From Escherichia coli (GTDB lineage Bacteria > Pseudomonadota > Gammaproteobacteria > Enterobacterales > Enterobacteriaceae), in NCBI RefSeq assembly GCF_003334815.1, contig NZ_QOWO01000007.1: a stretch of 64,000 nt of DNA; one strand, given 5' to 3'. The notes beneath the pieces are model-generated. The model saw only the letters and a program-made list of their open reading frames with translations, did not search any database and was not told the DNA's origin. The position numbers were made by a program, and so were the translations under genes. This document shows, piece after piece, positions 363-2,909 of the stretch (positions are counted from its first letter, which is position 1; every line of letters begins with the position of its first letter).

Positions 363-545
363 TCATCGATCTTGTATCACTTTTTTGCCGGAAGTTGTTT
401 GCATTTTATTAGTTGGATAGGGTTTGTGGATTTTTGCTGGCTGACGGGCAAATAAAGTTTGTTTAATGGTTTGCTTATCTGCCAGTTGATTAATCACATG
501 GCGGGCTATCTGACCGCCAGCACCAAGAATCAGTACATTTTTCAT
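363..545 (-). pseudogene. ymjC: truncated NAD(P)-binding (NmrA/SDR-like) gene remnant
   Basis: 60-aa ORF MKNVLILGAGGQIARHVINQLADK...ARQPAKI = Rossmann N-terminus only, then unrelated tail and stop. Confidence 0.45.
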
Positions 546-615
546 GAAAATTATCCCAGATTATTGGCAGCAATATGCCAGTCCATATCACTATTGCGGA
601 TTTGAATATGTTTCA

Positions 616-1536
616 TTACAGAGTTTCCTCAAAGAACGGAGCTAATACTGAAATTGCTTCAGCCACATAGGCTTTGCCGTCATAAAGATCCATATGGTTT
701 GCGCCTTCAACAATGTGATAGCGTTTATCCTGGCTTGATGCTCGATCGTACAGGTCGTCACTCATCCATTTGCTCCCTGCCTGGCTGCCCGCCACAATCT
801 GCGTCGGCTGAGTCAGGTACACTTCCGCCATATGGTAAGCATCATAGGTAATAATCTGGTTAAGGCTGCGCAAAGTAGCGTAACCCGGTGCTGTTGGATA
901 CTGCGCGCGAGGGGTGTGGTAATACTCCCAGGCCTGACGCAGTTCTTCGTTCGGCGCATCGGACTCCTTCATTGGTGCCAGTGGCATAATGGCGTATTCT
1001 CCGCTGCTAATATCGCTGGTTCTGGCGTTTGAACCCGCTTCAACGTATGGCAGGGCATCAATAGATTTCACATTGTTTTCCCAACCATTACGGAATATCG
1101 AACCAATATTGACCGCACTAACGGTACCGATGGCCTTGATGCGGCGATCCTGAATTGCAGCATTGGCTGTATATCCTGCACCGGCACAAATTCCCATCGC
1201 ACCAATTCGGGTATTGTCGACATAAGAAAGCGTTGTCAGGTAATCAATCACGGCACTGATGTCTTCAGTACGAATGTATGGGTTTTCTAACTGACGCGGC
1301 TCGCCGCCACTTTCACCTTGATAAGATGCGTCATAAGCAATAGTGACAAATCCCTTTTCCGCCAGTTTTTTGGCATAGGTTCCGGCCGTTTGTTCTTTAA
1401 CGCCCCCACCTGGGTGAGATAACACAATTGCCTGATACTGACGGGTTTCATCAAATTTTGGAGGGAAATAGATCACTGCAGACAAAGAGATGGTTGGATT
1501 ATTGCTGTTAGTGAAGCTGACTTTATTATTCATCAT
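616..1536 (-). CDS. ycjY: dienelactone-hydrolase-like alpha/beta hydrolase (Cys nucleophile)
   Basis: ORF track 616..1548; motif AMGICAGAG (GxCxG); start moved to second Met cluster preceded by GAGGAA. Confidence 0.85.
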   Translation of the reverse strand: MMNNKVSFTNSNNPTISLSAVIYFPPKFDETRQYQAIVLSHPGGGVKEQTAGTYAKKLAEKGFVTIAYDASYQGESGGEPRQLENPYIRTEDISAVIDYLTTLSYVDNTRIGAMGICAGAGYTANAAIQDRRIKAIGTVSAVNIGSIFRNGWENNVKSIDALPYVEAGSNARTSDISSGEYAIMPLAPMKESDAPNEELRQAWEYYHTPRAQYPTAPGYATLRSLNQIITYDAYHMAEVYLTQPTQIVAGSQAGSKWMSDDLYDRASSQDKRYHIVEGANHMDLYDGKAYVAEAISVLAPFFEETL

Positions 1537-1673
1537 TCCGTTCCTCATGGAGTTGTCGGTTCGTTTTAACGGTTGGTGATATCACTATAGATATTGATCA
1601 TTAAGTTGATTAGACCCAAAATCATGATTAGACCTATCATTTAAATGATTAATAGATTGCATGGAGATACTGA

Positions 1674-2573
1674 ATGAAGCGTGAAGAAATCGCTGATCTG
1701 ATGGCGTTTGTCGTCGTTGCAGAGGAGCGTAGCTTCACTCGTGCAGCAGCCCGCCTGAGCATGGCGCAGTCAGCTTTAAGCCAGATAGTGCGTCGTATAG
1801 AAGAACGATTGGGATTGCGGCTTCTGACGCGAACCACGCGCAGCGTTGTTCCAACTGAAGCGGGCGAGCATCTTTTGTCTGTTCTTGGCCCTATGTTGCA
1901 TGACATAGATTCAGCCATGGCATCCCTGAGCGATCTGCAGAACCGCCCATCCGGGACAATACGTATTACTACTGTAGAACATGCAGCAAAAACGATATTG
2001 TTACCAGCAATGCGCACATTCCTGAAATCGCATCCTGAAATTGATATTCAGCTCACCATTGATTATGGTTTGACCGATGTCGTTTCTGAACGTTTTGATG
2101 CAGGCGTCCGTCTGGGTGGGGAGATGGATAAAGATATGATCGCCATTCGAATCGGGCCAGATATACCAATGGCTATTGTTGGCTCACCGGATTATTTTTC
2201 TCGCCGAAGTGTTCCAACGTCAGTGTCACAATTAATAGATCATCAGGCAATTAATTTGTATCTTCCCACATCGGGTACAGCAAATCGCTGGAGATTAATA
2301 CGCGGTGGACGTGAAGTTCGTGTTCGCATGGAAGGTCAGCTTTTACTGAATACGATAGACCTGATCATTGATGCTGCAATTGATGGGCATGGATTGGCGT
2401 ATCTACCTTATGATCAGGTTGAGCGGGCTATTAAAGAAAAAAAACTGATACGTGTTTTGGATAAATTCACACCAGATTTACCCGGTTATCACCTGTACTA
2501 TCCACACCGTCGACATGCTGGCTCGGCATTCTCATTATTTATAGATAGGCTGAAGTATAAAGGTGCTGTTTAG
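1674..2573 (+). CDS. ycjZ: LysR-family transcriptional regulator
   Basis: 299 aa; N-terminal HTH ...SFTRAAARLSMAQSALSQIVRRIEERLG; divergent from ycjY. Confidence 0.85.
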   Translation: MKREEIADLMAFVVVAEERSFTRAAARLSMAQSALSQIVRRIEERLGLRLLTRTTRSVVPTEAGEHLLSVLGPMLHDIDSAMASLSDLQNRPSGTIRITTVEHAAKTILLPAMRTFLKSHPEIDIQLTIDYGLTDVVSERFDAGVRLGGEMDKDMIAIRIGPDIPMAIVGSPDYFSRRSVPTSVSQLIDHQAINLYLPTSGTANRWRLIRGGREVRVRMEGQLLLNTIDLIIDAAIDGHGLAYLPYDQVERAIKEKKLIRVLDKFTPDLPGYHLYYPHRRHAGSAFSLFIDRLKYKGAV

Positions 2574-2909
2574 CACTACTTGCTGATACATTAATTTAAT
2601 TCTTCTCTTAACGTATTCTCAGTTCCTTTCAACGTTTTGGTCATTTTTTATTCTTCGTACAATGGCGACAGATGCTGATTATGATACCGAAAACGGGTTT
2701 GAACGTGCGAAGCCCGAACGTAGTGTTCGGAGTTCTATGTGCTTTACCGCATTTTGGAGACTATTATTTACACTAAATCTGATTTGATATATTGATACTT
2801 AAAACATTTGATGCTTCCTTTGTCACTTTTTTGATGGAAGTTGTTTGCATTTCTTTAAGGCGAAACAAATAATTACGCATCAATTTTAAAGTCGGTTAGA
2901 GGGAAACTT

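Follow-up and report, generated by a model that had tools for sequence, protein, structure and literature searches.

In the stretch of Escherichia coli DNA analysed here (64,000 nt, hereafter the window; NCBI RefSeq assembly GCF_003334815.1, contig NZ_QOWO01000007.1), the divergent genes mpaA and mppA are separated by a small islet containing ymjC', ycjY and pgrR (also known as ycjZ), which is bracketed by two near-identical copies of a 29-nt direct repeat. Our conclusion is that these copies are most probably the cores of the left and right attachment sites (attL and attR) of a decayed element of the lambda family, of which the ymjC-ycjY-pgrR islet was the cargo. The analysis shows directly that the repeat is a single-copy segment in the ancestral mpaA-mppA spacer, that it is duplicated exactly at the ends of the islet, that the DNA adjoining one of the copies is homologous to the P arm of the lambda phage attachment site (attP) and that the truncation of ymjC, which lies right beside the other copy, is a separate and later deletion.

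The repeat and the ancestral mpaA-mppA spacer

Copy 1 (CACTTTTTTGCCGGAAGTTGTTTGCATTT, 378-406) and copy 2 (CACTTTTTTGATGGAAGTTGTTTGCATTT, 2824-2852) lie in direct orientation on the same strand and match at 27 of 29 positions, the two differences being adjacent (388-389 vs. 2834-2835). This is what a sequence-only reading of the window had described, and it is borne out both by the coordinates and by a shuffle test, in which none of 100 dinucleotide shuffles of the window held two matches (the chance expectation being 0). Gapless similarity between the copies stops after 42 nt (83%, 370-411 vs. 2816-2857) and the outer flanks are unrelated, again as that reading had it. Only two matches to the repeat occur in the window, and a genome-wide count, which the sequence-only reading had proposed, found a 35-mer around either copy at a median of two places per genome (maximum four) in 5,419 complete E. 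coli genomes, rather than at many unrelated loci, so that the repeat is not of a dispersed type. The exact 35-mer is present in 4,932 genomes for copy 2 and in 3,714 for copy 1, these counts being taken with K-12 as reference and without phylogenetic correction. On the same grounds (two matches in the window, no more than four places per genome and no Rfam family matched) we could rule out that the repeat is a repetitive extragenic palindromic sequence or bacterial interspersed mosaic element (REP/BIME), an enterobacterial repetitive intergenic consensus (ERIC) or a miniature inverted-repeat transposable element (MITE). An Rfam scan of positions 1-6000 at permissive thresholds gave just two sub-threshold chance matches, both within genes.

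What the locus looked like before the islet is revealed by other species. A scan with the MpaA N-terminus, using one genome per species, identified 80 loci, in 78 of which both start codons were found. The sampled taxa include Citrobacter, Enterobacter, Klebsiella, Kluyvera, Kosakonia, Leclercia, Pluralibacter, E. albertii, E. whittamii and an Escherichia cryptic-clade genome. Of the 78 loci, 76 have mpaA and mppA side by side and divergently oriented, with a spacer of 144-322 bp (typically ~185 bp when undivided) in which the segment occurs once. The remaining two are Escherichia sp. E1V33, with a K-12-type islet, and Salmonella enterica subsp. arizonae (locus L026), in which an unrelated AT-rich insert of ~3 kb occupies the spacer, and neither the 29-mer nor the mppA promoter block is present. 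When 75 distinct spacers were aligned, the ATCA, TTT, AAG and TTTGCATTT blocks of the 29-mer proved to be 80-100% conserved, with a nearly invariant GAAACAAATAATTAC next to them. The spacers upstream of mppA in other genera therefore do carry the 29-mer, which removes a doubt raised by the sequence-only reading, namely that the mppA promoters of other genomes might lack it.

The same undivided arrangement exists within E. coli. When searched with positions 1-3300 of the window, 5,419 of 5,426 complete E. coli genomes yielded the locus, and in 174 of the 5,426 mpaA adjoins mppA directly. In one of these empty sites, that of strain E50, the 182-bp spacer consists of the left flank of copy 1, one repeat of the GCC type and the right flank of copy 2. 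In every other locus form, the islet (2.4-4 kb, kept in ~96% of genomes) is located exactly between the copies and contains a short-chain dehydrogenase/reductase (SDR) gene or its remnant ymjC', one or two hydrolase genes, pgrR and a fragment of queH. In the K-12 form, which accounts for ~2,148 genomes (2,322 joined matches minus the 174 empty sites), the two copies start 2,446 nt apart. A form longer by 664 nt has an SDR gene that is intact or frameshifted (NRG857C, Seattle 1946 and TCM3e1), and a form longer by ~1.56 kb has the SDR gene together with two hydrolase genes (E24377A and O157:H7). At the positions where the copies differ, single-copy sites read GCC (E. coli empty sites, Escherichia sp. 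MOD1 and E. albertii), while GAT is found solely in copy 2, which identifies GAT as the derived state.

The conserved segment may form part of a promoter, a prediction from consensus and conservation. A scan upstream of mppA picks out a putative sigma-70 promoter at 2845-2873 on the plus strand, with a -35 hexamer TTGCAT (2845-2850) inside copy 2, a 17-nt spacing and a -10 hexamer AATAAT at 2868-2873 (or, alternatively, TTTGCA with an 18-nt spacing). Consensus matches in this region occur in chance-level number, and the predicted hexamers are 80-100% conserved in the 75 spacers. The 29-mer would thus correspond to the -35 and the upstream part of the predicted mppA promoter. Its placement upstream of mppA had been recognised from the sequence, copy 2 ending 57 nt before the ATG at 2910 rather than about 58; we found no mppA transcription start in the literature. 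On the other side of the spacer, outside the repeat, lies another conserved block (311-350, minus strand, GCAGTGTTGTGCAAA...TATCAAAT, 80-100% conserved in the same spacers), which might be the mpaA promoter (TTGATA-N17-AACACT). Both GAAACAAATAATTAC, which at 2861-2875 overlaps the predicted mppA -10, and GCAGTGTTGTGCAAA are near-invariant in ~75 species. Such conservation exceeds what bare hexamers need and suggests that they could be operator sites for a regulator of the ancestral divergent pair.

Probable lambda-type attachment sites at the islet ends

The key evidence on how the islet arrived comes from its right-hand end. A plasmid search with the right-hand extra islet DNA returned six lambda-sized records and otherwise only short queH matches. 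In the phage collection (50,697 records, 2.3 Gb), the last ~95 nt of the islet together with the left part of copy 2 match lambda 27637-27731 (BLAST, 95 nt, 76%, E = 5e-8), a region annotated as misc_recomb/int 3 in lambda and as attP in HK629 and HK630. In a gapless alignment anchored on the core CTTTTTT, positions 2734-2825 of the window (plus strand) match lambda 27633-27724 at 62 of 92 positions (63 of 92 in E24377A), which corresponds to the P-arm region with the Xis, Fis and H2 integration host factor (IHF) sites, up to the core. None of 20,000 shuffles exceeded 46 matches, and the controls in the same register, that is, the ancestral spacer and the left flank of copy 1, reached 27-29%. 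E24377A retains an unaltered IHF H2 motif (TATCAATATATTA on the bottom strand), its positions equivalent to 2785-2797 reading TAATATATTGATA, identical to lambda, and K-12 has one base changed (TGATATATTGATA). Both lambda and the E. coli loci fit H2-N28-CTTTTTT-N5-AAGTTG with identical spacing.

The repeat itself can be laid on the lambda core without gaps. The lambda attP core consists of a C site, a 7-bp overlap and a C' site (CAGCTTT-TTTATAC-TAAGTTG), and the core-type consensus of the integrase Int is CAACTTNNT. In the same register, the repeat reads TCACTTT-TTTG(CC/AT)G-GAAGTTG, which agrees with the consensus, as taken from the lambda literature, at six of seven specified positions on the C' side, where the right arm is the reverse complement of CAACTTC, and at five of seven on the C side, with two overlap positions differing between the copies. 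In copy 1, the C-like site occupies 377-383, the overlap (TTTGCCG) 384-390 and the C'-like site 391-397, beyond which the sequence is identical to copy 2 up to 406. In copy 2, the corresponding positions are 2823-2829, 2830-2836 (TTTGATG) and 2837-2843, and what follows the C'-like site is host sequence. Both mismatches between the copies therefore fall inside the putative overlap, the host-type GCC being found beside mpaA and the derived, presumably element-borne GAT on the side of the P arm.

These features suggest the following scenario. The ancestor would have had divergent mpaA and mppA genes and a ~185-bp spacer whose single 29/30-mer served as bacterial attachment site (attB). An integrative element of the lambda family, with an attP in which a lambda-like P arm adjoined a core sharing ~30 bp with the host (P arm-TCACTTTTTTGATGGAAGTTGTTTGCATTT-P'), would have recombined at this attB, Int presumably exchanging strands within the 7-bp overlap. 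The products would be copy 1 as attL (B-O-P'), whose left flank is host spacer, beside mpaA and copy 2 as attR (P-O-B') beside mppA. Since the element carried a copy of its target, integration would have rebuilt an intact mppA promoter, the -35 of copy 2 and everything to its right being host DNA. Later deletions would have taken int, xis (encoding the excisionase), the P' arm and all phage genes, leaving the cargo and the queH fragment, and ymjD' and ymjC' would be the result of two more deletions, later still, in some lineages, K-12 among them. Today, copy 2 would be part of the predicted mppA promoter and copy 1 an inert relic. The pattern of variation fits this: the right half of copy 1, read as element-derived, varies between strains (TTGTAT in B2 strains and O157:H7, ATTGCA in TCM3e1) and the left, host-derived half has an extra T in its T-run in E24377A, while none of the sampled E. 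coli departs from the host-derived -35 in copy 2. The larger number of genomes with the exact 35-mer for copy 2 than for copy 1 agrees with this.

Several points weigh against an attL/attR pair. Lambda-type integrases normally need identical overlaps, and the copies differ at two overlap positions, which requires a later double substitution, a non-optimal attB (a secondary site or one in a foreign host) or a crossover to the right of the overlap. There is no lambda P' homology to the right of copy 1 (29% in gapless alignment, and no match for the left junction in the phage collection), which means that copy 1 would be attL by symmetry only. The search for arm-type sites at the left junction gave one 10-mer, with two mismatches and in the wrong orientation. 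Even at the right junction, the P1-H1-P2 portion of the P arm is unrecognisable (23-24% gapless). Searching with lambda Int and Xis by tblastn returned noise only, no int or xis appears in the annotation of four locus forms, and no intact attP with this core was found in the 50,697 phage records, IMG/VR or the JGI metagenomes. Finally, the cargo genes are metabolic and regulatory, not phage-like.

Some of these absences would be expected if no integrase had been involved, with the islet entering by illegitimate recombination or repair of a staggered break that duplicated ~30 bp of target, and the lambda-like stretch being merely part of the imported DNA. Int, xis and the P' arm are all missing, the islet ends have no terminal inverted repeats, no transposase is annotated and both later deletions within the islet show short identical sequences at their ends, which speaks for this kind of event at the locus. 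What makes it quite unlikely is the P-arm homology, on account of which we downgraded it: that such an arm should by chance lie precisely at the junction, in the right orientation and at the exact lambda spacing from the core, strains belief, and target duplications of 30 bp are, to our knowledge, untypical of any known transposition or end-joining route. It is also unlikely, though a little less so, that the copies are held alike by a shared protein that co-regulates mpaA and mppA, a possibility that the sequence-only reading had offered as its alternative. In favour of a common binder, conservation of the segment across genera goes further than the -35 hexamer (ATCA, TTT and AAG blocks), mpaA and mppA are annotated in one murein-tripeptide pathway and copy 1 sits at the ancestral distance from mpaA. 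The duplication is nevertheless accounted for by descent, the -35-like half of copy 1 is polymorphic in several lineages (with a difference from K-12 in 31% of genomes), the first base of the conserved ATCA block is no longer kept in copy 2 (GTCA) and no factor binding both copies was found in the literature. What survives of that alternative is thus a site shared by descent, i.e. a conserved segment of the predicted mppA promoter, and not one with a known common binder.

A different proposition, which we consider very improbable, is that the repeats are a live recombination substrate and that the 174 islet-free genomes arose by precise excision. Empty sites do consist of a single copy between the left flank of copy 1 and the right flank of copy 2, as excision would leave them, and the flanking genes of E50 and HCM-27C-1 are nearest to those of the islet-bearing TCM3e1 (0.5-1.1% difference). 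Excision would, however, have kept the C found 12 nt to the left of copy 1 in eight of eight islet-bearing E. coli compared, and E50 and HCM-27C-1 have T there, like the outgroups. The copy in 6EVA (TTTTTTACCGTAAG), which represents a third empty haplotype, is obtainable from neither E. coli copy. Moreover, the longest perfect blocks shared by the copies are 10 and 17 nt, shorter than the roughly 25 bp that RecA needs; Int, Xis and the P' arm are absent, and the islet is kept in ~96% of genomes. Empty-site genomes are not one clone either, with no more than 43 records reaching 99% identity to E50 over 3.85 kb (the values for HCM-27C-1 and 6EVA are 98.8% and 96.8%). From these sequences, we favour the view that the empty allele is probably ancestral and that both alleles have spread between lineages by homologous recombination in the flanks. 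The transfer of alleles between lineages is supported by the mosaic in Escherichia sp. E1V33, in which a K-12-type islet with the same ymjC' junction is followed by a copy 2 and a right flank of its own lineage's type.

Two of the empty-type spacers deserve a word of their own. In 6EVA (L094, 1790-1880), the left half of the spacer differs strongly from that of all other E. coli and of the outgroups that were sampled, and the right half is typical of E. coli; the left half seems to have been imported by recombination, as a short stretch, from a lineage outside the sample. E. coli MFDS1019527 (L100, 20464-21909) combines an empty-type spacer with a complete prophage inserted ~66 nt into mppA, in the signal-peptide codons, which has genes for a tyrosine integrase, NinB, a helicase, a LexA-like repressor, Erf, NinG, RusA and Q. 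The prophage occupies an attachment site of its own, a second one that lies ~120 nt away from the 29-mer.

Truncation of ymjC and ymjD within the islet

The sequence-only reading had interpreted the repeat as the junction of an event that truncated ymjC using a copy of the mppA 5' sequence. That the repeat is a recombination junction stands, except that it marks the ends of the islet insertion and not a deletion in ymjC. The ymjC' open reading frame (363-545, minus strand, 60 aa) is 100% identical at residues 1-46 to an intact SDR protein of 212 aa, whose homologues match Pfam NmrA/NAD_binding_10, and diverges exactly where copy 1 begins, just as had been noticed; residues 47-60 come from copy 1 and host spacer. 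The peptide KMQTTSGKKV is indeed encoded by copy 1, as residues 47-56, but these are not the last codons of the frame, since IQDR and the stop follow. In strains with an intact SDR gene, the comparison that the sequence-only reading had called for, ymjC does not encode the 29-mer: in E24377A, NRG857C, O157:H7, Seattle 1946 and TCM3e1 copy 1 is intergenic, ~185 nt past the SDR stop. Aligning K-12 with E24377A and NRG857C shows that the K-12 lineage has lost the DNA between two TATT sequences (664 bp vs. NRG857C, 682 bp vs. E24377A), one just to the right of copy 1 (407-410) and the other within the SDR gene, which removed the 3' two-thirds of that gene and the region downstream. Because the left end of the deletion lies 1-4 nt beyond the right end of copy 1, the ymjC' frame now reads through this copy.

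Copy 1 was therefore already there when the deletion occurred, as its presence in strains with an intact SDR gene demonstrates, and the truncation of ymjC, as judged from these alignments, is a separate event, later than the repeat and not caused by it. That a repeat-mediated deletion should have truncated ymjC via the copy upstream of mppA, which the abrupt end of homology right beside copy 1 seemed to recommend, is refuted for practical purposes: copy 1 exists in intact-SDR strains, the TATT ends lie outside the repeat and the deleted DNA was wholly within the islet. Nor is copy 1 a pasted piece of mppA 5' sequence, since its left part is original host DNA, the foreign left part being that of copy 2. 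A second deletion, of ~0.9 kb, removed most of the second hydrolase gene, which is intact in E24377A, leaving ymjD' (551-616, minus strand; MKHIQIRNSDMDWHIAANNLG and a stop) as the N-terminal remnant of an alpha/beta hydrolase.

No terminator was found by a scan between the SDR gene and mpaA (hairpin z = -0.3). At 403-430 on the minus strand, a sigma-70-like TCCACA-16-TAAAAT, pointing towards mpaA, extends across the junction of the K-12 deletion and the right-hand end of copy 1; this consensus match occurs in the K-12-type form only, and such matches are found in chance-level number in the region. Further inactivations of genes at the locus have arisen independently in different lineages: mpaA has an internal stop in Seattle 1946 (L096) and SCU-106 (L098; 1053-1781 in both), the SDR gene is frameshifted in NRG857C (L002, 872-1509) and the second hydrolase gene in O157:H7 (L095, 2731-3661). 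The only genes that are intact in every islet-bearing genome examined are ycjY and pgrR.

The islet as probable cargo and its significance

In the window, the islet is flanked on the left (B side) by the 5' part of the host gene mpaA, which encodes a murein tripeptide amidase (1-281, minus strand, ATG at 281-279; RefSeq annotation of an identical locus), and on the right (B' side) by the host gene mppA, which encodes a murein tripeptide-binding protein (2910-4523, plus strand). Its cargo comprises ycjY (alpha/beta hydrolase, 616-1548, minus strand), pgrR (LysR-type regulator, 1674-2573, plus strand) and a foreign fragment of queH (epoxyqueuosine reductase, 2671-2763, plus strand), the latter identified by RefSeq annotation in E24377A and SCU-106 and by translation. 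At the DNA level, queH is supported at ~2671-2711 only (41 nt, with 90% matches to annotated queH genes), and the annotated remnant runs at its 3' side into the lambda-like stretch.

The genes of the islet belong to a module that is found elsewhere. PgrR homologues that are 87-89% identical occur in Klebsiella, Raoultella, Kluyvera, Citrobacter, Enterobacter and others, some of them plasmid-borne. In four loci from other genera, the order SDR-hydrolase-hydrolase / pgrR is kept amid wholly different neighbours, and the DNA of the module is 79% identical to the E. coli islet (Raoultella, Klebsiella and Kluyvera), once beside an integrase fragment, which is in keeping with the reading of the islet as mobile cargo. 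This homology begins ~70 nt beyond the SDR stop and goes no further than the pgrR stop; the 29-mer and the queH fragment do not travel with the module, and the E. coli islet has ~115 nt of extra DNA on the left and ~250 nt on the right, the latter including the queH-annotated fragment. An origin of the 115 nt to the right of copy 1 as a remnant of the adh_short or Oxidored_FMN genes (neighbours of the module elsewhere) was rejected. We also rejected the idea that the module makes ~30-bp duplications wherever it lands: the 20-23-nt repeats at L088 and L091 are dispersed copies of a hairpin, and at L085 and L092 there are no such repeats. In Raoultella, Klebsiella and Kluyvera, the module is bounded by this hairpin element (CAACnTCCGCTnnTGGCACAAAGCGGAC, stem GTCCGCT/AGCGGAC), which is located at 7950-7990 in L085, 4250-4340 and 7975-8050 in L088, 4230-4310 and 7950-7985 in L091 and 7950-7985 in L092. 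In L088 and L091, each 15-kb locus contains four to six occurrences of its motif TCCGCTT[CT]T, situated between cassettes of defence genes, toxin-immunity genes and integrase fragments, and the element is absent from the E. coli islet.

How does the E. coli islet compare with known systems? That integrated elements are bounded by direct repeats is textbook knowledge, and K-12 has many decayed prophages. As in lambda, a direct repeat of the core flanks the insert, one junction has a lambda-homologous P arm with the same H2-core spacing and, in the gapless alignment, two inverted CAACTT-like sites would surround a putative 7-bp overlap starting with TTT. It differs from lambda in its target (the mpaA-mppA spacer, not gal-bio), in the length of core identity (~30 bp vs. 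15 bp), in a P arm that is 67-76% identical, in its two overlap mismatches and in lacking a P' arm, int, xis and phage genes. The cryptic prophages of K-12 (e.g. e14/phage 21 at icd, Rac and DLP12) are likewise decayed elements bounded by att repeats, and at icd e14 carries a copy of the host target, so that integration rebuilds a functional host sequence, to which we liken the mppA promoter. These prophages keep an integrase and phage genes and are annotated as such, in contrast to the islet, which has none and is not annotated as phage in the records examined. Insertion sequences and transposons also leave direct target repeats that flank an insert absent from empty sites, but these are 2-14 bp long as opposed to 29-37 bp here, and the islet has neither the inverted termini nor the transposase of such elements. 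The ymjC' and ymjD' pseudogenes of K-12 are the same genes as those discussed above, and both are confirmed here as deletion remnants.

In the literature, ycjY-ymjDC(-mpaA) is tabulated as a unit regulated by PgrR (PMC5934670; PMC3946193). In the publications on PgrR, mppA, mpaA and ymjC that were covered, among which the original PgrR paper was not, there is no mention of the repeat, of an insertion in the spacer, of an att site or of a lambda-type arm. The points proposed here, namely a lambda-type att scar bounding the islet, a target in the control region between two peptidoglycan-recycling genes and pgrR as cargo of the element, are thus apparently unrecorded. A chromatin immunoprecipitation (ChIP-seq) site for the cyclic AMP receptor protein (CRP), labelled ycjZ/mppA in enterotoxigenic E. 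coli (PMC4287617), maps ~10 kb off and is irrelevant to this locus. The window has an exact copy of that site (CGTGAACCGGGTCACA) at 13075-13090 on the minus strand, ~10 kb from mppA, so that the label in the published table does not concern this locus.

The analysis explains a puzzling repeat in a well-studied genome, identifies the ymjC-ycjY-pgrR cluster as probable cargo of a lambda-family element and separates the insertion from the truncation of ymjC, although from the letters of one genome both look like a single event. It could also be imagined, although we regard this as rather doubtful, that the decayed element rewired the uptake and breakdown of murein tripeptides and that the reported role of PgrR in peptidoglycan recycling is a recent, lineage-specific by-product rather than an ancestral circuit. 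The idea builds on three points: (i) in ~96% of E. coli, a lambda-type P arm carrying an IHF site has taken the place of the mppA promoter DNA beyond about -50, (ii) mpaA sits downstream of a PgrR-controlled operon imported by the same element and (iii) the 0.66-kb deletion in K-12 may also have removed a barrier between this operon and mpaA, for which the terminator that would be needed is not supported. Since the pgrR module is mobile and its contexts in other genera are unrelated, the published link of PgrR to mpaA and peptidoglycan recycling in K-12 may be due to the place of insertion and to the later deletion, which calls for caution when transferring the PgrR regulon to other strains or species. 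E. coli itself offers a natural experiment on these questions, with ~3% of genomes (including those of the ST648 sequence type) having an undivided mpaA-mppA spacer, ~40% a truncated islet of the K-12 type and the rest a longer one.

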